Shown here: positions 9,270 to 63,426 of the stretch, piece after piece
Layout of the letters: each line of letters begins with the position of its first letter
Position numbering within the stretch: the stretch's first letter is position 1
Assembly (NCBI GenBank): GCA_008632985.1
Contig: QPGO01000021.1
Coordinates: 558,001 to 622,000 of the forward strand
Direction of reading: 5' to 3'
Origin: Psammoneis japonica
Lineage: Eukaryota
Length of the DNA: 64,000 nucleotides
The notes under the pieces: model-generated
Database searches by the model: none
What the model saw: only the letters and a program-made list of their open reading frames with translations
Told to the model about the DNA's origin: nothing
Program-made: the position numbers and the translations under genes

Positions 9270-10400
9270 TGGCAGGCCTTGCCGATTCTCCTCACACTGA
9301 GGGCAGCCCACAGAGTTGCTCCACTTCAGTCTCCTCTTGGTGATGCACTTTTGCATTGCCTCACTGTCTTGCCTGCATCAAGTGACTGAGTGGGGGGTTC
9401 GTCCTCTCTCTCTCTCTCTCTCTCTCCTTCTCCAGAGCCACTGCATGTTGTCATTTGTTGTCACACAGTGGCTGGGTGCATGCTGAGTGTTTCATGACCC
9501 ACCTGCTGTCCTTCCTCTTTCCAATCCTTTGCTGTGGGCTCTTGAGGTGCAGCTCTTTTTGTGAGCAGCAGCAGCACACTCATGCCACACTGCCAGAGAC
9601 ATTCCTTCTCTGCTCTCAGAGTCAGCACTTGGCTTGGCAGATCTCTTTCATTTGCACACTTCAGGGTTGAATTGGTGGTCATGCCAGAACTTCCTGGGAA
9701 ATGCCAATGGCCACAGTTTGACTGGTTGTGCACATGTTCACAGTCATTGCTCTGCAAAAATCTTGCATGGTCGTGCAAGCAAATGCACCCTGTGTGTCAG
9801 CATCATGCTGCAGCTGTGCAAACTGGTGTGGGACAAAGTCGGGCCTGTTTTTGCCAACCTTTTTGTTTTGACAATTAATGCATGCATGCAACATGGCACA
9901 TCTGGAATTTTTTGATGTGGCCATGACACCTCCAGAGAAAAACTGGCCTCAGTGTGTCAGCCCATCCTTGCTGATTGACCCAATGGCTCCAGCCAGAGAA
10001 AATGAGTGTTGTCTTGACAGACACAATGGGGCAGTTTCTTGGCAGGTTTTGACAATCATTGACAGCAGCCAAGTGCCATGCTCTGCATGGATTTTGATTT
10101 TGCACAATCATGGTTGACTCAGCTTTTGCTGTCAAGCTGCCAAAGACCTGCTGTTTTTTGTTTCAGCATGCTGCTGTGCTGTGTGCTGCATGCCTGGTGT
10201 GTTGATGAGCAGTGCCAAACAATGACGCCACACATCTCCCTTCAATTTTTTAGCACACTCACACCTCTCAGCATCTCAATCATTGCAGAAGTCAGGAGCA
10301 GCAAGTGCAACAAAAGGTGCTGCTTTGTGTGTGACCTCATGGTGTGACCATCATTTTTGTCATGATGTTCGCTGCCTCATGCCCCCCCCCCTCTCTCTCA
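9270..10400. mobile_element. Degenerate repeat-derived sequence (TpA/CpG-depleted), family unresolved
   Basis: Almost no TA or CG dinucleotides; (CT)n at about 9403-9427. Weak integrase-Zn-finger-like remnants on the minus strand (CINCQNKK). Confidence 0.45.
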
Positions 10401-10449
10401 GTGGCCTCCCCATTTGCAATCTGACAGGACAAAACTGGGGGGCATGGGA

Positions 10450-11967
10450 GATGCAGAGTTTGTGGCAGGAAAGAAGATTTCCAAGGTTGTGAGAGAATGG
10501 CTGCAACAGACAATCATGTGGTCAAGGTCAATGCATTGTTGAACATGGCTCAAAAGGTTTGAAAGGGGTTGTGAGCAGGGAGGGTTGGCCATTGTGCCTT
10601 TCCACAGCTGTTGTGGTTCACCCACTTTGAACATTTTGCCAGAGATGTCTTGTCACAATGGGGTTGCCAAGCCAGAGCTCTGGCCCCAAAATTTTCTGTG
10701 CAGTGCAACGCACATTGTCTGGTGGGTTTGTTGAGAGGCATTTGTTTCGAAGCATCTTGGAGGTTTTTCAGCCTTGAGAATGCCACTGCCAGCCACTTGA
10801 ATCCAGCATGCACTTCACAGACATCTTGGTGGATTTTTTGCATCTCTTTGCATGGTGCTCTGCATGGATGGTGTTCTTCTTGGTGAAAAAATGGGACAGT
10901 GCTGGGGTTGGTTGCATCAGTGACATTAGAGCTTGGAGGGTTTTGGCCTTGGAGAGCCACAGAGGCTTCTAAAAGGAGCTGTTGCAAGTGCTTTCTTTGT
11001 TGTGGCCACATGCTGCCAGCTTGTTGAAGAACTGGGTGGCTGTTCATTTGCAGTCCATGGGGTCTGAATTTTGGGCCCAGCACACATGCAGGTTGCCATG
11101 CACGACACCACTTTTCAGCACTCCAGGTGGGTGGGCAGAGCTTGGTGGAGTGCACAAGTGCAGGTTCACTGGTTTTTGGTGCATCTTGGTCTTGATCTTG
11201 TGGCATCAGTTTGCTCCAATCCGGATGTCAAGATCCAGGAAAACTGTGTGTTTGCTGAGTTCAGATGTTTCCCATTTCAGCAGGCCATGGTTGTCAAGTT
11301 CTTGCTTGAGCTTCTCCCAAGTCTTGCCTTGTTTGCTGCCGGTCAGCACGCCAAGTGTGTCATTGACGAATCATCCACAACACAGGAGGTTGCAGATGAA
11401 TCTTGGGATGTTTTGGCAATTGTGGAGGGCTTGGGACATGGCGGCACACATGCAAGCCATGCGGCCACCCATGGCTGTTCCATTTGTTTGGAGCCAGAAG
11501 GCGTTGCAAAGCTGGAGGATGTTCCTTGTCATGATGATCTCAAGGGCGGTCAGAAAAAATTGATTGGGAAATTTTCAGGTGCTTCATCAGGGTGCTTGAG
11601 GAACCAGCAACAGAATGTTTCCAGCGTGTGTGCACAGTGTTGATGTTGGAGTGCATGCTGGCTGCATTGGCTGTGAGTGGTTTTGCATCTGGCAGGAGTT
11701 TCCCCAGTTGTTGGTCACTCATGACTTGGTGAGAGTCTCAGATGCATGTCCGTGAGAGTGGCAGAAGCTCCTTCATTTTTGAATCAAGCCACTTGGAGAA
11801 AATTTTGTTCTCACCATTGATGCAGCTCACAATGGGGTGGGTTGCCCGTGGCTTCTTGTGTGCCTTTGGTGCAGTGCAGAGCTGAGGCACACAGGTGTGC
11901 AGCTTTTTTAAGCTCCGTTGGAAGCAAGTTTGTTCGACAGGTGAGAGTTCTTCCTCTGCAAGGTGCA

Positions 11968-12019
<52 letters not shown>

Positions 12020-12250
12020 GGCTCAACAGAAGGCACTTGTGCTTGGCAACTTCATTTTGACATGATCTGTTGCACTTTTTTGGTGGGTCAGCACAACAAA
12101 ATGACAACCCATCACATGTGGCTGGCAACTGTGCTGTGCCAATGCACGCCATCAAACAACCACAACAAATCAATGTTGACAACACTCATGCCATTTGCTG
12201 GTGGCATGAGACACAAACATGACCAAGAGTTCTTAAATGAGAGACTTGCG
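10450..12250 (-). mobile_element. Degenerate Penelope-like retroelement (RT remnant)
   Basis: Minus-strand fragments PQLCTAPKAHKKPRATHPIVSCIN..FSKWLD, DAKPLTANAASMHSNI, NGTAMG..ACMCA, VFLDLDI and AVAFSRLKNLQD match PLE RT motifs (PKxHK..RPIVS, DxxSMYTNI, GTAMG), with Tyr replaced by Cys or His. Confidence 0.8.
11972..12014. repeat. (CT)n microsatellite inside the Penelope remnant
   Basis: About 21 TC units directly visible. Confidence 0.95.
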
Positions 12251-12844
12251 ACTGCCACTTAGAAACACAAGCAGCCAGGCTGAGAGTGGCTTGGCAAGAG
12301 GAAGGGTGCAGGCAGGCAGGCAGTGCCACTGCACCGGAAGTGGGAGTGCCCCTGGCACCTCGCTTGCTCCCCTGGTGCTCGTGGCTGTGCCAAGGCTGCC
12401 AGCATGCTTGCTGCCTCAGGACTGGCACTGGGTCACTTTTGCCACTGCCTCCCTTTAGCTGCCCCAGCTGGCACAGACAGGGGCCAAGCAAACTACAGTG
12501 CTGGAAGTCTGCTGCAAAGATGGCACTGCAGGTGTTTGTGGCACGTGTCGCGCATGGATCTCGCAGGAGAAAAAACGGTGCAAGTGAATGCTTCAGTTGT
12601 TTCCATCAGCTTTCATCATGCTTGGCTTGAAGTTTTTGCTTGCAGGGTGGATTGTTCTTTCTAGTTTATTGAGTTTCATCTCATCGAATTTCGCTTGCTT
12701 CTTCCCTTCAAACTATTTGCAGCGTAGGCAATGGTTTGATCATATTTTCTAATTGTACTGTTTTGTACTTACTACCTGTTATCCGCCAGTGTCAAAAACA
12801 ATCATAAGTAGTATTCCGCCAAAGGCGCGCAATGATCTAACTAC

Positions 12845-16096: not shown

Positions 16097-16367
16097 GGTG
16101 GCAGAGTTTTGTGGAGCGTAGGAATTCTTGCTCACACACACGACACACGACTCATGCCTCGTGCTATGCTGTCGCACCCAAGGATTTATAAGTCTGTGAG
16201 GATGTACAAGCTCCGGTACAAATCTACGCACGAGCCTGTTGCCATGCGTGGTACGAACACCGTTAAAATTTGTACTGCGTTTTACGGCAGTCAACGTAGG
16301 GCTTCTGACGGGACGAACTTATCATTTATAAATATTCATGCACATATATCATAGATACCTCGAAGAC

Positions 16368-16451: not shown

Positions 16452-17784
16452 TGCGGGCGGTGGCGTACGTGGATGAAGACAGAGACGAAATGGAATTTCA
16501 AATATGGTAGCTCTAAAATCTGCCGCCGATTGCCAATCAACCCAATCACTGATTGATTGTTGTAACGATGAGTGATGATGTATGCTGCTGTAGTTCGCCA
16601 AATTGTCATGTGTTTCGACAAGCGCTGATTCACGCTAATGATCCACTTTGGGGTCGCCCGCTGGCAAGGATACGCGTGACGCAAAACACACGATGCAAGC
16701 GTCTCGTCCAAAGCATTGTCCATTACTTGAAGCCCGAGAGAAGCACTAAAATTTTATGCATTGCCCCTCATCACTGGCCAAGAATCAAAAATAAGAAACC
16801 ACCTAGATGGGAAAGATAGAGATGGAGAATGATGTTGTTAGTTTGTTTGTCATGCCGGTACTGTAAATGCATGATGCATCAATACTGCTTTAAATGTAAA
16901 CATACCTTATTGTACACATCCTTCAGAAGTAAACTGCACGAGATTCCAGCCCGCTCGCTCGCATTGCAATCGCAGAGTCTCCACGCCACCAAGATTTACC
17001 CCAGTTTTCGGTCCCCGAACGAGGGAGTGCTACTAACCGGCACTCGGCAAGGTCATGGACGTCAATATCCAACCCATTGCACATTATAATTGTCATTATT
17101 CGTGAAAGTATCAACTGTAGCTTGCTTGGTTCAGTCCAAAAGAGAGCGTAGGACACACCACAGCCCCGTTCCGATATAAGGAAGAACATGAGTTGAAAAG
17201 AAATGGTGTCGACACCGACACGAAACTATGAGATATTGTTCGTCCGTAGGGGTGATACGTTGCTCAACAGCTTCTCTATATGAGTTATAAAGACGAACAT
17301 GTCAAAGAAAATGAGTGAGATGCCGAAACAAAAGCACAATTTAATTCGATTGCGACAGAGAGCGATAATGAGTCTCGAACCGTGGTGTCAATACAAAATC
17401 CTTTTTCACCTTACAATTGACCGCTTACCTTCGAAAAAGCAACATAAGCTGTTTCTATATGGAGGTAAAGACTAGTAGATAGCGTTGGTATTGTTGAAAG
17501 GATCGTCAATAGTCTAATAAGCGGCGCTCCGATTATCATGGTGTGTGGTGCTTTGATGAATGATGCGCGATCCCTTGAAAAAATGAGGATATACAAAATA
17601 TACATAAATTTATATACTTTAACGGCGGAGTTATAAATCCTTGGTCGCACCACTCCCAGCTGGGAGGCTGTCGCACGACTGCGATGGACACCCGCGAGAC
17701 GCGACCGGTCCTTCAAAAAAACCACGACCACGCTGTGGTGACTTGGGGGGGGGGGGGCGCGGGGCTGGCACTTTAATTTAATCT

Positions 17785-19440
17785 GTCAATGCCCAGCAAT
17801 GGATCTCGATCAGTCTGATGCACTTGACACACCTGGCCCCACACACCAACAATGCACTGTTGTCAACTTCAGCTTGGTCAAGCTCATTGCTGTGCTGGGA
17901 ACTGGGAGAAAGCCACATCACACGGTGCTCCAAACAAGTTGATGCTCCAGAACATTGAAGCCAGCCACAGGAAAATTCCATAAGATCTTTTGAAATGAAC
18001 GAGGCAATGAGAAGAATGAAAAATCCAAGAAAAAACCCAAGGTGAGCAATGTGGGGGGCACCATCAAGAAAGAAAAGGCCTTTGAAGATGTTGGGGTGAC
18101 AAGCGCTCAAAATGGACATTTGATCAGCGAGACAAACTCAGCTGCAAAAGCACCTCATGCCAAGCCTCGTCAAGCTCAAAGTTCAAACAATTGGTCAACT
18201 TGACACAATTGCACCCACCTCCTGAATGCAAAAAATTTGCTGCCCATTCTGACACAACAACTTCTCTCTGTGTGCAGAGCTGGGCTGGGCAAAAAGTTGC
18301 CATGGGGAATGAGATGCTCCAAATCAGTTGCTGTCATGTGGCTTGAAGTGTTTCACCATGTGGGAGATTTTGATGAATGCACACTCCAAGCATGTTTGGA
18401 CTTGTGCTCAAGACCAAAGTTTGCACTCTCATCTGGAATTTGTGGTGGCTGCTCAGCTCTGCTTGCTGTTGTTTTTGAGATGAGAAAGAATGGCAGAGGC
18501 CACTGGAGGGTTGGCGTTGCACATCAGATCTGCGCGACAATGTGGAGTTGTTGCCATGTGGCCCTGACAGAAGGTTGTGCCCAGATTCTGCATTGGCAGG
18601 CAATGGACATGTGTCACAAAGGAGAGTCACACAGAACAAGTCCCCAGATGAAATGGCGCTGGTGCTTGGCTGCTGGCAGGAGGGCATGCACTGCTTTGGC
18701 TTGCTTCTGCCAAGAACTGCCACACTGTCTTTCCTTGCACACTTGAAAAAGAGTGCACCAGCCATGCAGTCAAGCAAGGCAGCTTCCGCAGGGCAAACGC
18801 CCAATTGAGAAATTCTTGTTGGCTGCATTTGAATGAGGTGGTTGGAGTTGATGACAGGTGAGGGAGGAAGGTGCATGAGTCAAGCTGGAGCTTTGCCTGC
18901 ACAAAAACTCTTGCAACAGAATGAGCTGAGGGCTGCACATTCAGAGGTGATGGTGGTGTGGCGTGTGTCAGAAGAGCTGAGTGCAAAAGAGGTGAAGGAG
19001 ACAGGCATGCTCAGATGGACAGCTGCCTTGCAAATGTGGAGTGAAGCGGAGTTGCTCAAAACAGTCAAGCTGCTGCTGCAGCCCAATGGCAAGCTGGTGC
19101 TCCAAATTCAAATGGCACAAATCACATGCCTTGCCAGAGCGCATTGATCTCCAAGCCAAGGGCTGCCCATTTGTTGTGTGGCAGGAGCATGAAACAAGGT
19201 TGGTGGCCTGGAACTGTGCGGGATTTGGCTCAAGAAGAGTGCAACAGAGTCAAGCACAAAAGAGCCAAGAAGGAAAGTTGCGCGGGACTTGGTTTTCTGG
19301 GCTTGTCAGGGAGGGCTGGATTGACTGCTTGGGTTGCGCTTGTGATCAGACACACCAGGTGCATGCTGGCCTCACATCATTGACATCATCAAAGGCTTGA
19401 GAGATGGGGGCAGCATCAAAGAAGATGACCAGCTCATCAG
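17785..19440. mobile_element. Degenerate repeat-derived block (TpA/CpG-depleted), family unresolved
   Basis: Starts just after a poly-G run at about 17744-17757; TA nearly absent; overlapping ORFs have no Tyr. Confidence 0.5.
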
Positions 19441-20886
19441 CCGCTCTGCAGATTTGGCACAAATTCAAACATGCAAATTTGAAATTTGATCAACTTCACA
19501 AAATTCCACATTGCCAAACCGAAAAATTGGTGAGAAAAAGGTTGAGTTGAGAGTGCAAGAAAGAGGAGTGAGGCAAAATGACAGCAGCAACAAAGCCAGC
19601 ACATGGCACCCAGAAGAGAGAGCCAATCGCCCCCACAATCAACAGCTCACCAATTCTGTGAGTTGTGAAATGCTGCGTCACTGCAGCATGCCTGGACTGA
19701 GCAGTCATGCCAAAATGAGAGAAAACAAAGTGAGTGACTCAAAAAAAACATTGGCACACAAGCAAAGTGGGGGTGTGAAAATGAATGACACACAACAGGG
19801 GAGGTTGGAAGCCACCACAAAAACCAGCAATGCAGACATGTTCGTCTTTTGCCAAACAATGTGTGCTCCTCTTGCGTTTTCATTCGCCACCTTGCAACCA
19901 GTTGAGAAACAGCAAAACCATGCATCGGTTGTTTGCAGCAGCCATCTTGCGAAGGCTCAAAGCAAGCTTCCAAAGCGGGTTTGCTTCTCTCCGCTTGTTT
20001 GTCGTCCGCAACACTCGCCGGCGGCGGCACTTGTCATCAGCAAAAACGCGAAAACTGTCATGATCATTTTTCCCCTGTGGGGTGGACAAATTCTGAGCCA
20101 CATCCTACAGCACTGACCATCCATTGTGCAAAAATTAGCGATGGCCGACCGACTGCACACAGGGCCTCTGTCTGTTCTGCTCCAGAGCAGCTTGCCACAA
20201 ATTCCAAAATGCAAACTTGGTCAATTTCACAAAATTCCACATTCCTGAACAGAAAAACAAGTGAGAAAAAGGACGAGTTGAGTGCAAAAAGTGGGGGGCG
20301 ACAATGCTGGCTGCTGGTGCCCCGGAATCCCCGAAGAAATCCAACAACCAAGAGCTCGCCAACTCTGTGAGTTGTGAAAATGCTGCGCGTCACTGCAGCA
20401 TGCCCAGACTGAGCAATTGTGACAAAAAGAGGGAAAAAGTGGATGACTCAAAAGAGCATTGGTGGCACACAAGCAAAATGGATGTAAAAAAAAAAGACAC
20501 ACGATGGGAGAGGTTGTTGGAATCCACAAAAATCAACAAAGACATGTCTTTTGCCACGTGTGCACTCCTCTTGCGTTTTGCATTCGCTGCCTTGTGACCA
20601 GTTGAGAAACGGCAAACCCACGCATTGGTTGTTTGCAGCAGCTGTCTTGTGCTGTCTTCTCTCAACGTCCGTGACACTTGCTGAAAGTTGATGTCGATAA
20701 AGAAAGAGCTTTTCAATCTGGAACAAGCTTGTTTGACATTGGTGCTGCACGCCGACGGCGGCACTTGTCATCAGCGAAAACTGTCATGACCATTTTTTCC
20801 TGTAAAATGGACAAATTCTACCCTACAGTAAGTACCGACCGTCCATTTTGGCAAAATCAGCGATGACCGACCGTGCGTAGGGCCTA
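19440..20886. repeat. Two tandem diverged copies (~720-730 bp) of a non-coding repeat element
   Basis: Colinear matches at about 19440-20170 and 20175-20886, e.g. cacaaaattccacatt, ctgtgagttgtgaaa.tgctgcg, ggcggcacttgtcatcagc.aaaac, and the ends gaccga..agggcct. Confidence 0.85.
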
Positions 20887-21007
20887 GTACAGTGTGTACG
20901 GTACAGTACGTTGGATGACGGGCGGAGTGAACACCACGCACCACGGACCACGCTGAAAATAAGCGACTAACTCCAAACTACTCGCGAAGAGAGCATAGGT
21001 GGCGACC

Positions 21008-22469: not shown

Positions 22470-23610
22470 CCCAGCAGGCCCCATCACCGCACCACATTGT
22501 AGAGTGACATGACAAAATCGGTCCCACATCATTTTTTCACTGTGGCATTTTTCTCTCAAAGTCAAAAGACAGCACAACACCCACAGTTCACAAACGAGAA
22601 TTTCCATGGGATCAAGGTCAAGCAAATCAACAGCCACTGCGATTGTGCCAGTCAAACAGGAGACATCCAGTTGCTGCCTCAACTGGGTGGTGCATGCTCA
22701 GTTTGCTGCCAGTGTGTTGCGCGCAGGTTGTCAAACTGCAAAGTTGCATTCCTTGAAATTTGCACCATGTGCAACTGGGATCAGCACAAAATGAAGCTCA
22801 CCAAATTTGTCAGTTGGACTGTGGCACACTTCACCTTGAGTCATTTGGGTCATGGCATGAGACAGCCCTCCATTTGCACTGCCATCAGTTTCAACCATTG
22901 TGGTTGTTGCACTTTCACCCTGGCAGCAAGAAAACATCAAAGCTAGAGCTGAAACATTGAAAGCAACCCAGCTGGAGATGCACTCCAGCCCCAGGTGGGA
23001 CTCCATGTGAAGGGGGCTTGCAAATTCTGCACACAAGTTCCACGGCAGAATTGCCAAGCAATGAACACACGAGCGATTGCCAACAGAAGAAAAAGAGAGG
23101 CAATTTTGTGAGTGCATCATCTCCTCCTCCACACTCAAAGCACATCATTTCCAGTTTTCCTGGGTGTGTGCTTCAGACACCAAAGAATGCACCTGCCCAC
23201 TTTTGCTGCCACAAATGAAGAAAGCAGCAAGCCTTTGGCTTCTTCGCGCAAAGCAGGGAGTGCGAGCCGAAGCAATTTTGCAGAAGATGGCATGCAGAAA
23301 TGTGCATGCATGACATGCAGCACAAAACCCAAAAACTCTCATGTCACAGTGCCGAAGGGACCAGGGACTTGGGTTGAGAGCAGGTCGAGGAGAGCGAAGA
23401 GCCGAAAAGCTGAAGAGAGATCGATGGCAATGGCGCAGAAGAAGCCAAGGCCACACCAAGATGGTCCTCAACAGTGAAGGGGAGAGGATGAAAATGCCAT
23501 CATTGTTGAGTGAAGCAACAAAGAGTCATCCATCAGTGGAGGAGGCAGAGGGTCCAAGAAACTTTCATGCTGTGTTCAAAACCGCAAGCTCCACAAAAAA
23601 AAGTCGACAC
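22470..23610. mobile_element. Degenerate repeat-derived block between the GT47 paralogues
   Basis: Starts at a poly-C run (~22463); TpA/CpG depleted; ORFs within it have no Tyr. Confidence 0.5.
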
Positions 23611-23962
23611 CTACTGCGCCGATGCTGTGTGCGTGTCTTCCGCCTGGATGTGCCTTCTCCGCATCAGGATCACTCGCACTCCCAACTGGGAGGTCTGTAA
23701 GTGGTACGGAAGAAGACTGGATCACTCGCAATGGGTCTTCGGAAAACTTTCCCGAACTTTCCAGTCCCGCGCGGGAGAAAGGAATGAAGGTTCTTTTTCC
23801 CAATTTGAAATTTTCTTGGAACTCCCAAAGCCCGTGCACATCCTTTTGTCGACAACACTGTTTCAAAGAGCTAAGAGCTATCGATACCATTTACCATTTT
23901 ATCCGCTTCGTATTTGCTGTTGACCAAACACAATGCACGACGGAAGCCGTAGCCTACCGACT

Positions 23963-29233: not shown

Positions 29234-29548
29234 CGACAAACTCGCAAAATAAGTTGACAAACTCGCTGAAGTCCACAAACTCGTGAAGTTGACAAAGTCC
29301 CCAAAGTTGACAAAGCTGCCAACTCCAAAAGTGGACAAACTTGCCAAAGTCGACAAACTCGCCAAGAGTCAACAAACCTGCCAAAAGTCGACAAACTCGC
29401 CAAAGTCGACAAACTCGCCAAAGTCAACAAACTTGCCAAAGTCGACAAAGTGGACAAACTCGCCAAAGTCTGCAAACTCGCACAAGTCGACAAACTCGCC
29501 AAACTCGCCAAACTCACCAAAAGTCGACAAACTAGCCAAAGTTGACAA
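29234..29548. repeat. Tandem array of an ~18-bp unit (gtcgacaaactcgccaaa)
   Basis: Directly visible; variants gttgac/gtcaac and cttgcc/ctcacc. Confidence 0.9.
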
Positions 29549-29587
29549 AGCAGTGCTTCCCAAATGTGCACTTTGGTCAGACCACAN

Positions 29588-29980
29588 CGGTTGCTGCTTG
29601 CTGCTTGGCTGTTGCCAGTTGCCGGTTGCCGGTTGCTGGTTGCTGCTTGGTGATTGCTGGTTGCAGTTGCCGGTTGCTGGTTGGCGGTTGCTGGCTGCTG
29701 CTGGTTGCTGGTTGGCGGTTGCTGGTGGCTGGCGGCTGGTTGCCAGTTGACAGAGGTGCTGGTTGCCGGGGTTGCCGGTTGCTGTTTGCCGACAGCTGTT
29801 TGCTGGTTGCTGGTTGCCAGTTGCTGGTTGCTGGTTGGCGCCGGTTGCTGGTTGCCAGTTGGTGGTTGGCAGTTGCACATTGCTGGTTGGCGGTTGGCGG
29901 TTGGCGGTTGCCGGTTGGAGGTTGCTGGTTGCCGGTTGCTGGTTGCCAGTTGGCGGTTGCTGGCTGCAGTTGCCGGTTGA
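29588..29980. repeat. Tandem array of a 7-bp unit (gttgccg/gttgctg/gttggcg)
   Basis: Directly visible; begins right after a single N at 29587. Confidence 0.9.
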
Positions 29981-32100
29981 TTTTGTGGAGCCGCATCATC
30001 ATCAACCAGGAGCAGAGCCCCGCCATGCAGGCAGCAAGGTGACTAGAAGCAAGTGCAGAAGAAAAAAAGCAAAGTTTGGTGGGTGCTGAGAGAGTTCTCT
30101 TTGTCCAGCATGCAAGACTGGTCAGTGTCTGGGGCAAAGAAATGAGAAGTCTGCAAGCCAGTCAGATTCCCTGGGGCTCCCAGCACAAGATTGTGACTGC
30201 TCACAACAGGCACAGCAGAGGCCCAGCTGCCAAAAAAGAGAATTTCAAGCACTGGGCTGGAAACCTGCTTTTTGGGCCTCAACACTGCAGCTGGTCCCAT
30301 GTGTTGCCAACCGCATGCAAAGATCAGCAAGTGTGATCTTGGGCACACTGCAACACATCTTCACTGATGCAGTGTGAGATGAAGATCTTGCAAGCCAAAT
30401 TGTTGGGTGCATGGGTGCATCTTTTTGTCTCACATGGCACTTTGACATCAGCTGCACATTCCCAGCTTCTGCTTGGGTTTCTACGAAATTTATTGCACTG
30501 ACGTCACCCTTCTCAGGCAGTGTCATGTTGGCTCCAACAAGCCTGTTTTGCCCACATTTGCCAGCATGGTGCAACCTTGTCACAGCATGATGAGCAATGT
30601 TCTTCAGTGGAAAACAACGAGTGTCGAAGCCTTGTGGTTTGTGTGCTGGTTGTCATTTCTCACAATTTTCCATCATCTCAGAAAATTTCCACATGAGCTC
30701 CGGTGCAAATTCTGATCTGCTTTTTACACATCTCCTGTCAACTTCTGTCCCTGCCAATTGGTCTTCAATGCTGCTTCTTTTCTCTGTTGTTCAACCAAGT
30801 CTTTTAAAGCAGCTCCTCTGTTGCAGCCTTTTTTAGCAAGAACAAGAGTCATCCTTGGTGTCAGTTGACTGTCATCCATTTGCTGTGCACGCACCAGCAT
30901 TTCTGTGCAATTTTTAGCATTGTTTCCACATGTGACACGAATGTTGCACCACTGATGATCTGCGCTGCACATCTCCGGTCATCTTCTGTCCCCGCCAATT
31001 GGCCTTCAATTCCACTTCTTCTTTCTGTTGTTCAGCCAAGCCTTTTGCTTTTTGAGGTGAAAGCAACACCTCTGTTGTGGCCTTTTCTAGCAAGAACAAG
31101 AGTTTTCCTTCAGTGTCAGTTGACTGTTCTCCATTTGATGCATGCACCAGCATTTCTGTGCAATGTCTGGTGTTGTTTCTACATGCAATGAACATTTTTT
31201 TTCAACAACCCACCCGGCTCACCTTCAAGGCTCCCAGCTCCACACATCCAAGTCCTGTGCAATCTTTTCTTCAGTTTGCTCTCTGCTCTTCTCCCTCTCA
31301 CACCCATGTGCTGTTGTGTGTGTGTGTGATCTTCTCATGCTTGAAAGTTTTGACATTTGCTTTCTCAACCAAATCTGCTGTCACAATCTCTTTGCGAGTG
31401 TGTGAGAAAAAACAACTCATGTTGGCAGTCAAAAAGTGGGTGTGCAGTGCCACAAGATGAACTCAGCAGCCAGCACCCATCTGAGCTCCTTTGTGCTTAG
31501 ATGAACCTGGTTGATGCCCAAAATCTTCACTGCCCCACGCTCATGATGAAGCAACATGCAACATGGGCTGGTGGTGCACAGACCACCAGAGTGACATCCC
31601 CCACTGTGTCAACAATCTCAACACTGTGTGTGTTCCCTGGGCACAAGTTCAAGACATGGAAGAAATTGGTCTCATCCACAAGAGTTGCAAAACATCTCCC
31701 ATGTCTCTGTGTTTGCTGCACAGCTTCTTTGCTTTTCACAACTCCTCCATTTTTCCTGACACTTCTGTCAAAGCTGGGTGCATGCATGGTGTGCTCAAGT
31801 CATCATGCCTCAAGGCCCCAGGCTCTTCAACTTCTGCATTGAAGATCCTGTCGAAACATTTGATTCTCATGTGCTCCACACAATTTGGCCATGCCTTGCA
31901 ACTTTGGAGCCTGTGGAAGCAGGCCAAACAGCATTTGAAGCATGTCCTTTTGACAAGAAGGGTGAAAATTCCTGGTGGAAAGAGAGAGAGGAGTGGATTT
32001 GGTCCATGAAAGGTGAGAGTGAATCCATGCAGAATGATGCATCCTTGAGAAAGATGAGAAGAAGAACTAAAGGCTGAAGAGGCCAGGTGATGAGAGTGAA
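29980..32100. mobile_element. Degenerate repeat-derived block with an internal ~240-bp direct duplication (30727-30960 and 30968-31190)
   Basis: TpA/CpG depleted; cacatctcc.gtca.cttctgtccc.gccaattgg occurs at 30727 and 30968 with colinear downstream sequence. Confidence 0.55.
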
Positions 32101-35131: not shown

Positions 35132-35327
35132 GTTTCCTTCATCTCAGTACCACAAAGCTATGAAAGAAAAGGGAGAGTTGTTTGTTTTAACCCAGAGTAA
35201 AAGAGGGGAAAGATCTGCCGGTAGATGTAGAAGATTTCCGTACTAGTTTATGCTTCTTCATAAAGAGTGACCTGCTTTGGGCCAAACTCCAGTTCACAGT
35301 GAATTCATCCATCATGAGGACAACAGT

Positions 35328-35512
35328 NNNNNNNNNNNNNNNNNNNNNNNNNNNNNNNNNNNNNNNNNNNNNNNNNNNNNNNNNNNNNNNNNNNNNNNNN
35401 NNNNNNNNNNNNNNNNNNNNNNNNNNNNNNNNNNNNNNNNNNNNNNNNNNNNNNNNNNNNNNNNNNNNNNNNNNNNNNNNNNNNNNNNNNNNNNNNNNNN
35501 NNNNNNNNNNNN
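35328..35512. other. Assembly gap (N run)
   Basis: Run of n. Confidence 0.99.
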
Positions 35513-39668: not shown

Positions 39669-39946
39669 AGTAGCATTGCTGTATTTGACGTTGGAACGAT
39701 TCTTGTGAGACTAGCAAAAATCAGTGAATAACGCGGACACATTTCTTTGAATGAGACGCGGGAATGATGCGTTTACATGAAGCATCAGCAGTAGATTGTT
39801 GTTATTTTCCTGAACACGCTTTTTCGCGACACATTAGACTTGTAACAATTAGCAAATGCTCAAGCCAATACAAAATAGTTGAAATTCAACAAGAAGATTG
39901 TTCTGCACATCACACTCGAGCAATTGGTGAGCCTTCTGCTGTCAAT

Positions 39947-52598: not shown

Positions 52599-53079
52599 GA
52601 ATCTCATTGAGAAGCGAGGAATTTGTCTGCCACTTTTCTACTCTAGCTTGTCTTTTCCTAATAAATAAAAGTCAATGGCTCATAATATTATGTAGGCCAG
52701 GAGCCGTCTTATCGATGCTCTTGGTGTAATGCCGTCCGTGTTTGCCTCTCTTCTCTACTCTCTAGAGCTCTAGCTAGAGTAGAGAGAGAGAGTCACTGTA
52801 GGAATCGACGAGCGAGATCGACACATTCATAGGGCCTACAGCTAACCTTAGCTACTACCCGTAGCAAAGAGATGAAAACCGAACGAGATTGAAGATGCGC
52901 GTCTTGCGTGCTCCGCCTCACGCGCAAGCAATAACGCGCAACGCGACGCTATCTCTTCTCGACGAGCAACCATGACACAGCAGACGGCGCTTCGAGTTTT
53001 AATAAGCGCTGCTCATTGACTACATCCTCTATCCCGCTTCTACCCTTGACAACATCTATAAGTCGTCTCACTAAACATC

Positions 53080-54159
53080 ATGGAAGAGCCAGAACTTAGC
53101 TCGACGTCGCTGTCTTCCAACGAAGAGTCGTCTTCGTCTCCCCCCTCTCCAGCCACACCACCACCGGCTGAATCATCTCCGCCTACTACAGCAGCTGCAT
53201 CGTCTTTGGGTACTAATATGCAAGCCATGATTGTGGAAGAAAAGTCCTATCATGATTTGGAGGCATGGCTATCAAAATTATCCGTCGGAACGCCTCTTGC
53301 CGAAAACGAAGTCAAATTGTTGTGTGAAATGGCTCGTGCGACGCTCCTGTCGGAATCCAACGTGCAGCCCGTATCGGCTCCCGTCACGGTATGCGGTGAC
53401 ATTCACGGTCAATGGCACGATCTCATGGAACTCTATCGTATCGGAGGCAGTGCGCCCGATACGAATTACCTATTCATGGGTGATTATGTCGACCGTGGCT
53501 ATTATTCCGTCGAGACGGTGAGCATGTTGGTGTGTCTCAAGGTGCGTTATCCCGATCGGGTGTACTGTCTGCGAGGCAATCACGAGTCGAGACAAATCAC
53601 ACAAGTCTATGGCTTTTATGACGAGTGTGTGCGCAAATATGGATCGGCCAATGTGTGGAAACTCTTTACCGACCTCTTTGATTACTTTCCTCTGACGGCC
53701 TTGGTGGAGCACTCGATCTTTTGTCTGCACGGTGGATTGAGTCCTTCGATTGATACACTCGATCATGTCCGTCAATTGGATCGTGTGCAGGAAGTCCCAC
53801 ACGAGGGACCCATGTGTGATTTGCTTTGGTCGGATCCAGACGAACGGTCCGGATGGGGCATCTCTCCTCGGGGCGCGGGGTTCACCTTTGGTCAGGACAT
53901 TTCGCAGCAGTTTAACGAACGCAACGGACTCGAGTTGGTCGGACGGGCGCATCAACTCGTCATGGAGGGTTACAATTGGAGCCATGAACAGTCGGTTGTT
54001 ACAATCTTTAGCGCGCCAAACTATTGTTATCGATGTGGTAATCAAGCCGCTATTATGGAGGTGGATGAAGAATTGAACAAGACCTTTTTGCAATTCGATC
54101 CTGCTCCGCGTCGGGGAGAACCGCATGTTACGAGAAGAACACCCGATTACTTTTTATAA
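53080..54159 (+). CDS. PPP2CA: Serine/threonine protein phosphatase 2A catalytic subunit
   Basis: [21 protein letters not shown] and [11 protein letters not shown] motifs and the diagnostic C-terminus TPDYFL; S/P-rich N-terminal extension. Confidence 0.96.
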
Positions 54160-54637
54160 TCAGAGCAAGATGCCAAACAAGGATTACAGTATGGAATGAT
54201 AAAAGAAAAGGTACTACTAAACAAATTAAGGAAGTGATGAGACAAGTTATAACCGAATTCGAGTGAATTCATTTTTGACGCTTCCTTCATAGTGCAAGTC
54301 TTCGTAGTGGTCTCTTTCTCCGTTGGAACCTCCACACAGGTAACAAAATACGTGTTGCTGATACAGTCACGCTATTGCGTTCGCTCTTAGATCATTCCTA
54401 CACAGTGTTGACATGTCCCATTCAAACACTTGAAGGGGCTAAAATTGAAAATACGGAAGAGGAGTAGAGGTGACTTTCCTTTGCGTCGGACCTTCAGTGA
54501 CGTTGTTGCTCTCTAAGGTCTGTACTTGATGAGGTGTGATGCCAGGCATAGCAAATGCTTCCAATTTCGTCTCTAAGAACATAGGCACCTACTGTAGCAC
54601 CGGTACCTCGATCTCCCAGCGATGTTTGTGACGTTGC

Positions 54638-56722: not shown

Positions 56723-56778
56723 CGTTCGAGCAAACAGCAAAAGGATAATAAATGATGCGGCTCTATAAGCCATGTGCA

Positions 56779-57237
56779 CTGGTACAAAAATCACGTAGAA
56801 ATTTTACGTAGAAAAAATTATAAAAATTAGGGTTTGGGCCGATTTTTTTCTCGTGCTTCTACCGTGCTTCTCTGCTCCACCGACGCCTCAAGGAATCGTT
56901 TTCCCCTGAAACCATTGACACTTTACATGATGACTTTTACATAAGTAACACGATTCTGTGCGTGAACACTTCAAAATTCCATTTTCAGAAATTCGATCAA
57001 CACTTCACTACGGTCCTACCACGGTAAACATTTTCCAATGATGGAATTTTGCCGAACGGTGGACATCGTCGTGTTTGTCATCAAAAAGTAAGTACGCAAA
57101 GTGTCAACCGTTATGACTGAAATCGATTCCTTGAGGTCGTGGCCTATTTTTCGCAAAGCACGGGAAAAGCACGACGAACAAAATATTCTACGCGAATTTT
57201 CTACGTGAGTTTTGTACCAGAAATCGGCCCAAACCCT
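56779..57237. mobile_element. MITE-like element with multiple inverted-repeat segments
   Basis: ctggtacaaaaatcacgtagaaa (56779) pairs with tttctacgtgagttttgtaccag (ends 57220); agggtttgggccgattt (56829) pairs with aaatcggcccaaaccct (57221); cctcaaggaatcg pairs with cgattccttgagg. Confidence 0.7.
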
Positions 57238-57339
57238 GTTTTTCGGGACTCATAACCCCTGCACATGGCTTATGGAGCTCACTCTCACTCTCAACTCGGG
57301 GTGCTCGTTGGTCGTGAACGATTTTAGTGACTCGTGCTT

Positions 57340-58630
57340 CATGCTTCATGTCCACAGCCCGCCCTCCATCGCATCTTGAATCTATCTCTAGAAGTACCAT
57401 CCGCAGCCATGTGGCCTTCCTGCCTGCACCTCATCGGTTTTCCTCACATCACATCTGTCAAGAAAACATCAAGACATCTCAAGCCACCAGCAGATCTCAC
57501 ACTGCAGTTGCAGTCATTTTCCCAGCTTGCTCTTTGTTCCACTTTGTGGCAACAACGTCCTCTCAGAATGAACGCTGATGAGAAAAAAGAAAAGAGAGAG
57601 AATTTGCTTGAGCTTGGGACAAAAGCCAGGCTCATGAAAGAAAAGAAAATTGCCACTGTGCTTGCAAAATTGGCAACAGGGAGCACCGCTGTTTGTTTGA
57701 CTTCAAAACTTGTCTCTTGCTGTGCTTGAATTTTTTTGCTTTTGTGCACTGTTGTGTGTTGTTGTGCAGGTTGAGCAGGGAGCAAGGCAGAGCTGCACTT
57801 CCACACTTTTGCTTTGTTGTCATCACACTGTTGGCTGACTGACAGCTGCACATTGGTTGCTCCATGTGCTCTGGAAACTGTGCACATTGAGCACAAAATG
57901 ACATTTTTGTTCACTCGTCCATCAGCCACAAAGGCGTGTCAAACTCAACCAGGAGTTTGACGATGGCTCAAAGTGTGCTTGCACTGATGCCTGCTCTGTT
58001 TCACTGGAGAGCACAGCACTGATGAAGTGATGTTGTGTGACAAGGATTGGCTTTGCAATGTGGGCTCACCAGTTGCAGCACTCAACTGGGCCAGAGATGT
58101 TCAGCCACTTCAAAGATCATTTGCACAATGATGATGCCAAGGGAAAATCACCAAGCACTGCCACTGGCAGGGTGGCTGTGCATCAGCCTGACCACATGAA
58201 GCCATGCAATCAATGTGCTTGTGCTGCCTGAAACTTCCAGCTCATGACCTTGCAAAAGCATGCATGTGCCCACTTGCAAGAAGCTGCATTTGGTCAAAAC
58301 CCTGTCACACCTGTGGAAAACACCCAGCATTGAATTGAAACTTTTGCAGCTGACATGCAGCATTGGATCAAACAGATGAGTTCAATGAAAATCATGAAGA
58401 TGAAGCCAACTGCCACAAAAATGTGCCCGCAACAATTTCTCTCATGCTTCTGCCAACAATCCCACCCAGTCGCTCCTGGGCACCTTCTCTTTTTCTTTGC
58501 TTTTGATGAGCCAGAACTGCTCAAGTGCTTGTTTTGAGCTGCCCAAGATGCCAAATTGCCCAACCAAAATGCTGCAGCTGCAGCAGCTTCAGTTCAAGGA
58601 CACACAGTTGAGAGCATTGACAGAGGCAAG
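57340..58630. mobile_element. Degenerate repeat-derived block (TpA/CpG-depleted), family unresolved
   Basis: Practically TA-free over ~1.3 kb; ORFs within it have no Tyr. Confidence 0.5.
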
Positions 58631-60229
58631 AGATCCCTAAAATGGGAAAATACCCCTGACAGATTAATTTTGTCCCCTCACAGATTAGTCGTAAAATAGG
58701 AATCCAAGACTCAGCGTGGGTTCCTTGTCGTTCGCGGGACTCGTCGTCCCCTCCCCCGCGGTCGGAAACTTGTGACATACATTTCTACGTCAAACCACGT
58801 ATGTACGGACCCACGCGATAACAACACCGGCTGCAATCGACCGCGACAAACACGAACCACCTGGTGGTCCGTGTGCATTTTTGGGTGCACACGAACCACC
58901 TGGTGGTTCGTGTGCACCCTACGCAAAATGCTGCGTAGATTTGTACCGAATAAATCTGAGTACTGTAAATCCGACGTAGGATCTACGTGTTTGTACCACT
59001 CAACACTTGTCCACCGAGCCGGCAGTCTGTGCCGGCCGTCGTGACAAATATTTTATGTCAAAGAAAGAGTTCGTCAGGGCCGGCGAACAACACCCCACTA
59101 CGATGCGACTGGTATAAAATGTACGTAAATGCACAGGAACCAGCATGTGGTTCGTGTGCAAATTAGAGCTCGTGAAAAATAAGCAGGGATATGGGCAAGA
59201 CACGCAATGGCGCGTTCGAATCCATTTTATGACGGCAATTGTCAATCAATCATGACACAAGTCAATGTAGTCGATAATGTTGATTGAATGTGATCTATAA
59301 CATAAAAATAAGATGAAACATGGTAGCTTATGTGCAGAATGCTAGCACAACAGATTGTTTGTCGTGAAAAGTGCTGTTCTTGTGTCGTTTCATCACAGAT
59401 GCAAATCACAAGGCGACTGAAGTGGTGGCTAAGGCAAAATCAGAACCGTGTATGGCTAATGAAAATATGGTGGATTGAATGGTCACGTTTTTTCCTCCCT
59501 TCTACGTGTCTCATGTGCAGAACACAGCGGATCGTTTTGTCATGCTTGTGTTGTGTGGCCACAAATGCAAGGCACAAGTCATCTACAGTGAAGGCTAAGG
59601 CCGCAGCAGAACCATGTTAGATTGATGTTAACATGGAGAATTTAATGGAAAAGCTTGTTCCTCCTAATTCCACCAGAAGGGGGCGCATCGCGTCGATGTG
59701 TCGATGCATCGGTCATGGTCGTCCCAGGTGGTGGATTTGCACGTGGCGAAGGTGCCACTAACTTGGCATGCAGCAACGTAGAATCTTGCTGCTTGCAACA
59801 GAAGATTGTCTGGTTAAATCGACAGGGAGTGGAATTTCATTGGCCTTTTGCCAATTGAAGAAGTTGAAGAAGCAGATTCTGAAAAAGCAGATTCCCAAAA
59901 TTTTTTTAATCTGTGGCGGGACCGACTTGGTCTGTGAGGAGTTGGTGCCCCCCTAAAATGTTGTTGTGATTTTCACAAACAACTGTCCTTTGGCACAATG
60001 TTGTCAGCAAATGCATGATCTGCTGCAAGCCTTGGAAAAATTTTGCACTGCACTGTTGCTGTCTGGCATGTTTGCTTGCGTCATGGCATTGCCGCATGTC
60101 CTTTTCTCAGGGCTTTGTGCCAGCACTTTTTCATTTTGTGCAAAAGCGCTGAAGCTCATTTGCATCATCCTTGTTGGTGCTGTCATTGCAGTGAGCTTGT
60201 GTGCAATGCTTGTTGTTGTTCAACAAACA

Positions 60230-60800
60230 ACTTGGACCCAGGGCTGGTGTGGCAAGCTGGTCCTGTGCCAGAGTGAGGTGCATGGTTGGCTGCTCAGGCT
60301 GAAGCTGTGGCATGGATTTGATTGGACCATTTGCAACCACCATCAAGCCAGAGCTCAACATGCTCACATGCAATGACAACACAACTGGCTTGACAGAACT
60401 GGTGTGTGCATTGATGACAAAATGTTGCAGTGTGCTGCCAACAAATTTTGCAATCTTTGGTTGTCTCCTTGCTGCCTCAGACCAAAAATTGCTGCGCCGA
60501 TCACAGCAGTGGTGAATTTGTTGGTTGGGAACATTTCACATGTTGTTGAATCAAGCAGGCATGGCAGATGTGTGTCAACTGTGAACTCTGCAATTCTCAA
60601 ACCAGTGCAGTGTGTGAAAGAATGCACCAAACAGCAGCCAATGTTTTGTGAGTGCTGCTCCCATTGCTGACCACCCTCCTTCTGCTGCAAACCTTCAACG
60701 TGCAAGTGAAATTGCAGACAATGCTTTGGCAGCTCTTTTCCACAAGAAAGAATGCACTGTCCTGTTTGTTCTCAAAATCTGTGGTCATTTCTTTGAGTGT
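60230..60800 (+). mobile_element. Degenerate Ty3/gypsy-type integrase remnant
   Basis: Fragments DLIGPF, LNMLTCNDNTTGLTELV, DHSSGEFVGWE and PQTSAVCERMHQTAANVL resemble the rve core (DxxGP, LT.ID..T, DNG.EF, PQ.N...ER). Confidence 0.75.
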
Positions 60801-62435
60801 CCCAGTGTTTTGATGAAATGTGACTTTTGACCTTCCATTCAATTCAAACCAGCAACACTGTCAAGTGCTTGTTGACAACAGTCTTGACCGCAGGGCTCAA
60901 AGCAGTGTGATCCTTTGACCACCAAGTTGGGCAAGATGTTTTGACCAAGTCTGCTTCTGACCCTGCCAAGTTGGGGGCTTGAGCAATTGGTCCATTTGAG
61001 GTGCTGCAAGTCCATGTCAATGGGGCCATTGTCTCAGCTTTGCATGGGCACCACACATCATTGAATGGATTGGTGTTTGTCAAGTGGTGTCATGTTGGAA
61101 ATGATGGGCTTCTTCTCAATGTCTGGGTGGCTTGAAGCATGGCACACAGTTCCTTGCACCATGGGGGGAAGAGTGGACAACTTCAGCCAACTGCACTTCA
61201 TGTGCAGATGGCACCTGCTCTGACATGATGTGGCATGTGCTGACAGATGTGCCAGATGTCAGGGTCAGAAGCATGTGAGGGGTTCAGTGGCAGCGGCAGG
61301 CCCTTTTCAGCTCTTCTCACAAATGCCAAGACATTTCAGGCTGGGTCTTGCAAATCACTCACTCCAATTTGTGGCAAGTGTGGGGCCACAAAAAAAAAAC
61401 ACTGGGCTCTGCTGACACAAAAAAAACACTGAGCTCTGCTGGCACAGAGTGCTTGTTTTGCCAGAAGCCCTCACTTTGTTCAGTGCTTGGCAGCGGCCAC
61501 TCACACAGAATGCCTGTGTGCAAGGTTTTGCAACCATGCATCTTTGTGAACAGCAGTCTTGCTTGCTTGTTGGGTTGCACGTGCTGTGGCTAGAACAATG
61601 GCTGGTGCTGCTTTGCTTCTGTTTTCCCAATGCTGTGTTTTGGCTGGTGCCAGGAGAAACAGGCTCTGGCTGTTTTTGAGTCATCTTGGGACAGAGCTCT
61701 GCCAACTTGGTGCAAGGTGTTGACCAAAAATTCACCTGGTGGCTTGTTTGCACAATGTTCCAAAAAAGAGACACTGGTGGTGGGTTGATTTCCCCGAGTT
61801 GATGCCATTGCATCTTCCCTGCTCTTTCTGTTTCACTCAACAATGATCTGTGCAACATTTTTGAAAAAAATGGCACACCCAGCATCTCCAACCAAAACAA
61901 TGTTTTTCTCCAACCCAGCTCATCTCACCCTTTTTTGCATCTTTTTGTCAATGGCAAATCTGTGATTTGTCTGGCCAAATTTTGACCACACCATTTTCCT
62001 TTGCAGCTTGACCCAGAAACAAAAACAAGGTTGCAGACCACATTGCATTTGTGCCAGGTGTGAGCTCTTGTCATGCTGCAACAAGGAATCATGGCACAGC
62101 AGCAGACCATGCTTCAATTCCTTGCAAGTGCTGCTCTTTGACTGCATTTTCCACCCTGCTTTTTCTTTTTACAAGATCTGCATTGTTCTCCACTGAACCT
62201 CATGGCAGAGTCAGAACTGAGCTCAGCATCACTGTCTTGCAATGAAGAGAGTTGTCTTCATCTCATCCCCCTCCTTCCATGCCACCACTGGCTGAATCAT
62301 TTCCACCCACAGCCATGCTGTCCTCATTTTTGAGCCATGTGCAAGCCAAAATGTGGAAGGAAAGTCCTGTCATGACTTGGGGACACACAACCACTCAATG
62401 CTCTTGTCTCAAAGCATGATGTGCAGCCCACATTT

Positions 62436-62639
62436 TGGGTGTCGCCACTCACAAAGAGAGCTGCAGTGTGGCAGTCTGTCTGCACGACAGTTTCCACTCT
62501 GTGCACATTTTGTGCCATCATCTGTCCCCACCACCCCCCGGCTGGAGGTGGGAGGGAGGGACAACAGTGCAAAACAAGCACAGAAACTGTCCCACAGACA
62601 GATCTCCACTGCAGCTCTTCTTGCAAGTGGCGACACCCA
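62436..62639. mobile_element. 204-bp MITE with ~55-bp TIRs and probable ATTT target-site duplication
   Basis: tgggtgtcgccact..gagctgcagtg..gacagtttc pairs with gaaactgtc..cactgcagctc..agtggcgacaccca; attt at 62432-62435 and 62640-62643; absent from the intact gene. Confidence 0.85.
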
Positions 62640-63426
62640 ATTTGCTTTTGTCACAGCATGTGGCCAGACAGTTGCTGCAATGGCGCAATCTCATGGAAGT
62701 CTGTTGCACATTGGAGGCAGTGTGCACCCAATGTAAGCTGTTTGTTCATGGGTGATTGTGTCAACTGTTGCTGTTGTTTGGTCAAGGCAGTGAGCATGCT
62801 GGTGTGTCTTGAGGTGCATCACCCCGATCAGGTGAGTTGCTTGCAAGGCAGTCATGGGTCAATTCAAATGACACAGCTCTGTGGCTTTTTGCAACAAGGG
62901 TGTGCAGAAATGTTGATCAGTCAATGCATGGAAAGTCTTCATCAATCTCTTTGATTGCTTTCCTCTGCTGGCCTTGGTGGTGGAGCACTCTGTGTTTGTC
63001 TGCATGCACCGCATCAATCAAATTGGGTTTTGTGCAGGAAGAAGTGCCACATGAGGGACCCACATGAAATTTGATTTCATCAGATCCAGACAAACCGCCT
63101 CACCTTTTGTCAGGACATTTTGCAGCAGTTGGTTCAATGAATGCAATGGACTCAACTTTGGGCACATCAATCATGTCGTCATGGAGGGTCGCAATTGGAG
63201 TCATGATCAGCGTCCTGCTGCAATCCTTGGCACGCCAAACCAGTGTTGTTGATGTGGAAATCAAGCTGCCATTGTGGAGGTGGATGAAGAATTGAACAAG
63301 ATTTTTTTGCAATTCGTTCCTGCTCCTCGTTGGGGAGAACCGCATGTTGCAAAAAGAAGGCCCGATTGCTTTTTATAATCAGAGCAAGAAACCAAGCAAT
63401 GACTGTGGAATGACAAAAGAAAATGT

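Follow-up and report, generated by a model that had tools for sequence, protein, structure and literature searches.

What process can strip two dinucleotides, TpA and CpG, from sharply bounded stretches of a genome and leave the genes between them untouched? This question is raised by a 64,000-nucleotide stretch of Psammoneis japonica DNA (assembly GCA_008632985.1, contig QPGO01000021.1, positions 558,001 to 622,000), hereafter called the window. In it, two context-specific transition processes have hit non-genic DNA and not genes, gene paralogs or young inserts. The resulting loss of TA and CG looks like a previously undescribed mutation pattern, one that resembles host degradation of silent DNA. 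A first, sequence-only reading of the window had described eight TA- and CG-poor blocks. All eight are present, at coordinates that were right to about 50-200 bp. Here, blocks were delimited by the gaps between successive TA (Table 1). Their pooled length is 19,888 bp and the remaining 44,112 bp served as background; all composition counts come from this single window of one genome.

The blocks retain 31 TA and 227 CG, as compared to about 803 and about 1082 expected at the background rate. Expressed as observed/expected ratios (o/e), TA falls to 0.02 in the pooled blocks, far below the 0.58 of the background, and CG to 0.18 against 0.98. Conversely, TG and CA rise to 1.80 and 1.87 (background 1.20 and 1.14). 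The G+C content is 0.497 versus 0.472. Sliding counts showed the joint depletion of TA and CG that had been proposed, together with an excess of TG and CA, in all eight stretches: TA ranges from 0 to 8 and CG from 4 to 20 per kb, with a TG+CA o/e of about 1.9 and a G+C of about 0.49. The deficit of TA+CG (about 1630) matches the surplus of TG+CA (about 1650), and the two products are symmetric between strands (2328 TG, 2222 CA). Runs free of TA reach 2125 bp in the blocks and 285 bp outside them, for a median TA spacing of 15 bp. Block edges are sharp to about 10-50 bp and lie 130-470 bp away from the ends of open reading frames (ORFs). Block 1, for instance, leaves a margin of 184 bp to the stop codon of either convergent neighbour (9085 and 12845).

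Table 1. Coordinates of the converted blocks, duplicates, inserts and spared genes of the window
Feature	Position	Strand	Remarks
Block 1	9269..12661		9 TA and 32 CG in 3393 bp; fills the gap between two convergent genes
Block 2	17780..20697		TA-gap left boundary 17780/17982; 3 TA and 55 CG in 17982-20697
Block 3	22501..23611		1 TA and 20 CG in 1111 bp; between tandem GT47 paralogs
Block 4	29534..32067		converted part about 29980-32067
Block 5	35262..38350		TA-gap boundaries 35262/35513-38276; 2 TA and 29 CG in 35513-38276
Inverted-repeat arm 1	38016..38350	+	right end of block 5
Conserved hypothetical gene	38678..39469	+	between blocks 5 and 6; normal composition, spared
Block 6	39877..42585		3 TA and 18 CG in 2709 bp; left end is inverted-repeat arm 2
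Inverted-repeat arm 2	39948..40287		left end of block 6
Intact parent PPP-type Ser/Thr phosphatase gene with flanks	52962..54308	+	ORF 53080-54159; normal composition
Fold-back MITE	56760..57278		nested inverted repeats; TA o/e 0.62, CG o/e 1.32; 117 bp left of block 7
Block 7	57396..58644		0 TA and 10 CG in 57396-58637; left part of one old block
MITE-like insertion, younger	58645..59950		36-nt terminal inverted repeat, 75%; TA o/e 0.58, CG o/e 0.98
Block 8	59951..63426		TA-gap boundaries 59955-63373; 3 TA and 27 CG in 59955-63373
Decayed phosphatase copy in block 8	62081..63426	+	homology resumes at 63920-64000, beyond the MITE
MITE-like insertion inside the decayed phosphatase copy	63427..63908		18-nt terminal inverted repeat, 89%; TA o/e 0.69, CG o/e 1.28

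The eight stretches are really six or seven blocks, and some of the sharp edges are those of young insertions. Blocks 7 and 8 formed a single old block until a 1306-bp insertion separated them. Its target duplication of 10 bp, CCCTAAAATG, is perfect, being identical at 58635-58644 and 59951-59960, and has the size of those made by Mutator-type elements. The same old block extends beyond 63373 to the end of the window, behind a 482-bp miniature inverted-repeat transposable element (MITE). The left 450 bp or so of block 4 (29589-29979) is a tandem array of the 7-bp unit GGTTGCT, TA-less by its own make-up, and block 5 includes an assembly gap at 35328-35512. The array of block 4 is one of two adjoining microsatellite-like arrays that lie at 29251-29979, at the 5′ end of a WD40 gene. 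The other, at 29251-29550, has the 9/18-bp unit AAGTCGACA; the 7-bp unit is present in about 55 copies, and a single N at 29587 stands between both arrays.

The direction of the change could be followed in a gene that is present twice. The intact phosphatase gene, whose product matches Pfam Metallophos with an E value of 6.4e-42, is located 9 kb from the decayed copy in block 8. The presence of a host-gene copy in the blocks had been noticed in the sequence-only reading; the copy is converted and its parent is intact. When compared with parent positions 52962-54212, the copy showed 71% identity in plain letters and 88-93% in purine/pyrimidine letters, so that most of the differences are transitions. 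Transversions amount to 58 of 941 positions (6%), and indels also occur. A tblastn search with the parent protein finds the copy at E 1.6e-48, with Cys or His in place of Tyr. Among 40 parental TA, 21 became TG, 9 became CA and 2 were kept. The 65 parental CG gave 28 CA and 20 TG, with 8 kept; thus, 48 of 65 were converted to TG or CA, the outcome expected of CpG decay on both strands. In contrast to these losses, parental TG and CA are unchanged in the copy in 84% of cases. The context rates were 24/38 for T[A>G] and 11/39 for [T>C]A, and 22/65 for [C>T]G and 29/65 for C[G>A]. All other transition contexts were at 0.02-0.15, except [C>T]C at 0.25. The loss is therefore directed from TA to TG or CA and from CG to TG or CA, and occurred by mutation. 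The copy includes the flanks of the gene, that is, it is a DNA-level duplicate. Conversion runs across its left end with the composition unchanged there, which shows that one block covers DNA of more than one origin. This bears out the earlier view that the signature is not a property of any one element: it was imposed in place on DNA of different origins.

Conversion in place is seen in three internal duplicate pairs: the phosphatase parent and copy, the inverted-repeat arms at the facing ends of blocks 5 and 6, and a direct duplicate within block 2 (19454-20151 and 20192-20873). Identity between the two arms is 82% in plain letters and rises to 95% in purine/pyrimidine letters; over 332 columns, 53 of the differences are transitions and 6 are transversions. 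At 13 steps, TG in one arm stands opposite CA in the other, and at 10 further steps CG is kept in one arm and replaced by TG or CA in the other. These discordant steps show that each arm was converted separately, after formation of the repeat.

The block 2 duplicate gave information on the relation between the two losses. In the right part of the block (about 19800-20800, about 1 kb), 0-2 TA remain per 200 bp but 4-11 CG, and ancestral CG is retained in both copies, at 20010-20160 and 20748-20880. TA was thus lost where ancestral CG was kept, which shows that the two losses are separable. TA loss is the more penetrant of the two. CpG decay as the whole cause fails on the same grounds, since TA loss (31 of about 803 left) is the larger of the two losses and extends to DNA that has retained its CG. 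At one place of this duplicate (20064-20077 and 20790-20802), GTAAAATGG in the unmutated copy faces GTGGGGTGG in the converted copy, a pair with four neighbouring A/G differences. This stretch may hint at A-to-G changes continuing along an A tract after the first TA.

We considered whether the signature of the blocks might reflect modified bases misread by the sequencer or the assembler, as modified bases do give systematic transition errors in some long-read base-callers. Run X1, a public DNA run analysed as k-mer contigs, carries 86% of the sampled words of 56500-63900. One of its contigs spans 57245-58673, across block 7, with 0 differences and a depth of 66. Another spans 59866-63456, across block 8, with 2 differences and 1 gap at a depth of 67. 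Because these depths are close to the value of 54 at neighbouring genes, each of the two blocks is present in a single copy, and accurate reads yield the same sequence. In addition, the N gaps of the window suggest a short-read scaffold, such gaps being typical of short-read assemblies. The copies differ also by indels and by the 6% transversions, and misreading on two strands would yield mixed calls rather than fixed TG or CA. A sequencing or assembly artefact is therefore hardly tenable.

The flanks of the surviving and converted sites were then compared. A 5′ pyrimidine precedes 29 of the 31 surviving TA (16.1 expected; p 7e-7) and a 3′ purine follows 24 of them. The survivors are mainly TTAG, CTAG and TTAA, and no ATAN is left in the blocks. 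In the phosphatase pair, YTAY sites changed to TG in 16 cases and to CA in 7, and RTAR sites to CA in 3 and to TG in 1. In the blocks, the ratio (TGY+RCA)/(TGR+YCA) is 1.29 versus 1.04 in a context-free simulation, and NTGC is the most enriched class. We read these data as A-to-G changes at 5′-T-A-Y-3′ on either strand; the self-complementary YTAR class resists on both strands. Surviving CG, for its part, is enriched 2-3 fold over its background share in the GC-rich flanks GCGC, CCGG and CCGC. Slower loss of CG in GC-rich flanks is the behaviour of 5-methylcytosine (5mC) decay. A simulation in which 96% TA loss and 80% CG loss were applied to the background sequence reproduced the TG and CA excess (r 0.96).

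An A-to-G change with a 5′ U or T preference resembles ADAR editing. The blocks could on this ground be retro-copies of RNA hyperedited by ADAR or APOBEC enzymes before integration, or else DNA imported without TA and CG. However, both strands are hit equally, and TAG and TAA are refractory here, the residual TA being mostly TTAG or CTAG, whereas ADAR favours a 3′ G. Moreover, the phosphatase copy with its flanks is a duplicate made at the DNA level, and the inverted-repeat arms diverged in place. An origin of the signature before integration is scarcely credible.

Genes of the window are spared. In 16 ORFs, NCG codons are about as common as NCA codons (114 TCG and 110 TCA; 113 ACG and 129 ACA), and at codon 3|1 boundaries the o/e is 0.88 for CG and 0.59 for TA, the background level. 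These values bear on a genome-wide neutral bias, under which all unconstrained DNA would drift to a TA-free and CG-free state and normal DNA would be either selected or young. Such a bias would fit with the blocks occupying long intergenic spaces up to margins the size of untranslated regions or promoters, and with the youth of the stretches of normal composition that break up or border blocks 7 and 8. The retention of CG and TA at synonymous and codon-boundary sites nevertheless makes a bias checked by selection unlikely. A 1.46-kb intergenic stretch of normal composition (16319-17781; TA o/e 0.78, CG o/e 1.11) also argues against it. Taken together, we consider this explanation highly improbable. 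The interval between the two arms (38351-39876), with its gene, is equally normal (TA o/e 0.58, CG o/e 0.92).

Duplicated genes are spared as well. Two tandem GT47 (exostosin-type) paralogs, at 21014-22302 and 23963-25241, are 85% identical and unmutated, with block 3 between them. Two tandem paralogs with a BTB/POZ domain (43123-44253 and 45105-46235) are 68% identical and normal in composition. With these two pairs and the phosphatase parent untouched, duplication as such is not the trigger of conversion.

The three MITE-like inserts, all of which lie in or beside converted DNA, behave likewise. They are the only recognisable mobile elements, and their normal TA and CG contents are the opposite of what the sequence-only reading had claimed for transposons. 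Their summed k-mer depth in run X1 (up to 5240 for 56760-57278, 190-2190 for 58645-59950 and 1400-2760 for 63427-63908) shows that they are multi-copy. The two TA in the 10-bp target duplicates CCCTAAAATG stay unconverted. By arithmetic from the counts, the residual TA of the blocks (1.6 per kb) permits at most about 1.4% of later ordinary transitions.

These observations have to be set against a defence resembling repeat-induced point mutation (RIP), in which repeats would be recognised by homology, perhaps at the sexual cycle with a DNMT4/RID-type enzyme, and one activity would hit both CpG and TpA in a few episodes. The sharp edges speak for it, and conversion is near-complete even in arms that differ by only 6 transversions. 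Each block of traceable origin is a duplicate, be it the phosphatase copy, the inverted-repeat arms or the block 2 duplicate. Diatoms also encode DNMT4 enzymes related to fungal RID, described as of unknown function (PMC9998398). On the other hand, such a defence should not have left untouched the phosphatase parent, the two pairs of gene paralogs and the multi-copy MITEs. TG and CA outcomes show no clustering by strand (runs-test z from -2.7 to +1.5), TA is lost where CG is kept, and the spectrum is opposite to that of Neurospora RIP, which makes TpA. We regard this explanation as unlikely.

In the sequence-only reading, the blocks coincided with dead transposons, the classes named being Penelope, YR, gypsy and MITE. 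No transposon domain, such as reverse transcriptase, integrase, recombinase or GIY-YIG, was detected with Pfam in 150 block ORFs of at least 80 aa, in any of the 48 read-throughs of full frames or, at E<=1, in 87 ORFs. This test is weak because Pfam also misses the known phosphatase copy. No long terminal repeat pairs appeared in a purine/pyrimidine-letter self-comparison. Protein searches gave no match with the block 2 ORF 19490-20113, with the block 2 frame 17984-20697 against 1.84 billion protein representatives, or with the phosphatase-copy ORF 62376-62951. Dead transposons as the material of the blocks are thus unconfirmed, and not disproved. Weak Pfam matches in block ORFs (SWIM at E 0.003, OrsD, zf-C2HE) were taken as artefacts of Cys/His-rich false ORFs. 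A codon score in purine/pyrimidine letters, meant for ancestral frames, was dropped because it chose the wrong strand for the phosphatase copy and barely separated genes from other DNA. Scans of the window for tRNA and Rfam families found nothing.

The long ORFs free of Tyr had also been cited as agreeing with the signature. The four that were named do contain no Tyr and are raised in Cys, His and Gln. They are not independent evidence, however: without TA there is neither a TAA or TAG stop nor a TAY codon. Blocks hold 4 ORFs of at least 200 aa, as compared to 4.0 ± 1.9 in dinucleotide-preserving shuffles. Tyr-free ORFs are a chance by-product of TA loss.

Overall, the data make it probable that the blocks are old non-genic DNA, hypermutated in place by conventional CpG decay together with a new process that makes A:T-to-G:C changes at TpA, neither of which would reach beyond silent DNA outside genes. 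The material would consist of decayed duplicates, a pseudogene and sequence without a traced origin. In the first process, CpG becomes TpG or CpA, presumably through deamination of 5mC, provided that this silent DNA is methylated. In the second, TpA becomes TpG or CpA by A:T-to-G:C changes at the A of 5′-T-A-Y-3′ on either strand. This second process is the more complete and can run where CG survives, and its putative enzyme would be tied to the same silent state as the first. We infer a chromatin domain behind the blocks. A genome defence that inactivates repeats is possible, with duplication as such not its trigger. In the full-text literature, a scope that leaves out most subscription journals and supplements, we found no report of a joint conversion of TpA and CpG to TpG/CpA in any eukaryote.

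Three chemistries may be proposed for the loss of TA. The first choice would be deamination of adenine in DNA, the second a mutagenic modification of thymine and the third error-prone repair synthesis after 5mC deamination. A more specific form of the first is that an enzyme linked to genome defence or heterochromatin deaminates adenine in chromosomal double-stranded DNA at 5′-T-A-Y-3′, maybe as a dual A/C deaminase that also takes the C of CpG. We put this forward tentatively, as a conjecture that may well prove wrong.

The third chemistry would need no separate enzyme. Deamination of 5mC would draw mismatch or excision repair, and a polymerase resembling DNA polymerase eta (Pol eta) would miscopy T at TA during resynthesis. 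The co-location of TA and CG losses and the strand-symmetric outcomes are compatible with such collateral damage. A TA loss that is more complete and reaches slightly beyond the CG loss would be expected if many deaminations were repaired for each one fixed. In antibody hypermutation, Pol eta has an A>G bias at WA motifs, which include AA. In the phosphatase pair, however, A[A>G] was at background (4/53) while T[A>G] reached 24/38. Repair patches of hundreds of bases should also blur the edges, which are sharp, and about 1 kb has lost its TA with the ancestral CG kept. For these reasons, the repair explanation is weakened and appears to us distinctly improbable.

Several points weigh against two processes acting on silent DNA. 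The very sharp edges would be equally compatible with targeting bounded by elements and with a chromatin domain. The normal composition of the young inserts means that the process is slow, has ended or is not applied to all mobile DNA. The simulation leaves residuals: GC o/e is 1.32 in the blocks versus 1.05 simulated, AT o/e 0.78 versus 0.95 and G+C 0.497 versus 0.467, and the flank rule accounts for them in part only. Run X1 may come from the same sample as the assembly of the window, in which case it serves mainly to exclude an error of assembly and less as independent proof. In 9 metagenome loci (26 kb) around homologues of the 38678-39469 gene, no TA/CG-free stretch was found, these loci being short and gene-dense. 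Finally, deamination of adenine in double-stranded DNA is not known of any natural enzyme.

Some other features of the window may be mentioned. The product of the conserved hypothetical gene between blocks 5 and 6 has 58 homologues in public data, at 37-75% identity. Its invariant columns are Cys (C83, C85, C100, C115 and C213) and Gly, and it has no Pfam match. A 42-bp tandem repeat of 4.2 copies (39484-39655) is located directly downstream of this gene. A 243-bp tandem repeat (54662-55511; 3.4 copies, 90% matches), which separates the phosphatase gene from a NodZ-like fucosyltransferase gene, has normal TA and CG. On the minus strand, a large gene at 12845-16096 encodes a reductase resembling nonribosomal peptide synthetases. 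Its domains are AMP-binding, PP-binding and NAD_binding_4, a set that carboxylate or aminoadipate reductases also have. The N-terminal and helical domains of an XRN 5′-3′ exoribonuclease are encoded at 748-4400, also on the minus strand, by two neighbouring ORFs; these probably belong to a single gene, interrupted at about 2400-2590 by an intron or a frame break.

Detailed knowledge of host hypermutation of unwanted DNA comes only from RIP in fungi and, in the passive form of CpG decay, from methylated genomes; both act on cytosine. A near-total and sharply bounded removal of TpA by A:T-to-G:C transitions would, if true, amount to a mutational process not described before. A natural enzyme, or a DNA mark, that targets adenine or thymine might be found through it, with relevance to genome defence, to the evolution of mutation spectra and to base editing. 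Should adenine deamination be the cause, every stop-rich, promoter-rich TA step would be erased from silent DNA, and the enzyme would be a natural hypermutator of DNA adenine, without precedent, as well as a non-fungal counterpart of RIP. On the practical side, the blocks breed long false Tyr-free ORFs, able to pollute gene predictions and protein databases, and they make the origin of the DNA invisible to homology searches of the ordinary kind.

Among known systems, RIP and methylation-driven CpG decay come nearest. As in the RIP of Neurospora and other ascomycetes, the blocks look like the work of a host that permanently wrecks non-genic or duplicated DNA by dense, context-specific transitions, with sharp edges and conversion of nearly every target site. 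RIP, however, changes C to T at CpA and thereby creates TpA, whereas in the blocks TpA is destroyed and the C of CpA is spared ([C>T]A 2/66). RIP relies on a RID/DNMT4-type enzyme and takes place before meiosis, and every copy of a duplicate above an identity threshold of about 80% is mutated. Here, the phosphatase parent, the GT47 paralogs (85%) and the multi-copy MITEs are unmutated. Furthermore, RIP has no known adenine or thymine component that would correspond to the TpA loss. In basidiomycetes, a RIP-like hypermutation is described in a TCG context (PMC3318451). CpG decay, as in vertebrate genomes and methylated transposons, shares with the blocks the conversion of CpG to TpG/CpA, the confinement to part of the genome and the slower loss in GC-rich flanks, seen here as the 2-3 fold residual GCGC, CCGG and CCGC. 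It leaves TpA alone and thus explains at most half of the block signature.

Clustered A-to-G or C-to-T changes in mobile DNA are also produced by ADAR hyperediting and by APOBEC enzymes. Their target is a single strand, RNA or cDNA, at a stage prior to integration, with a 3′ G favoured or in TC/CC contexts, whereas the changes in the blocks are symmetric, made in place and found at TAY and CG. For a mark on thymine, base J of kinetoplastids offers a comparison, as does 5-hydroxymethyluracil (5hmU), for which older work gave a preference for TpA. In dinoflagellates, 5hmU made by TET/JBP enzymes on repeats silences transposons, according to one report (PMC11572971). As described there, it is a thymine-directed mark on repeats in a protist of the SAR group, so that T:A pairs can be silencing targets. 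Unlike the blocks, it comes with no mutational signature in the sections available of that report (PMC11572971), and a corresponding enzyme or base in the blocks is hypothetical. For a deaminase, the TadA/ADAT2-type adenosine deaminases invite comparison, although to our knowledge no natural member acts on chromosomal double-stranded DNA. These enzymes deaminate tRNA position 34 in a U-A-C context, DNA adenine base editors were derived from them, and trypanosome ADAT2/3 reportedly has C-to-U activity on DNA. Their U-A-C context matches the 5′-T-A-Y-3′ deduced for the blocks, and the deamination of both A and C would lie within reach of their fold.

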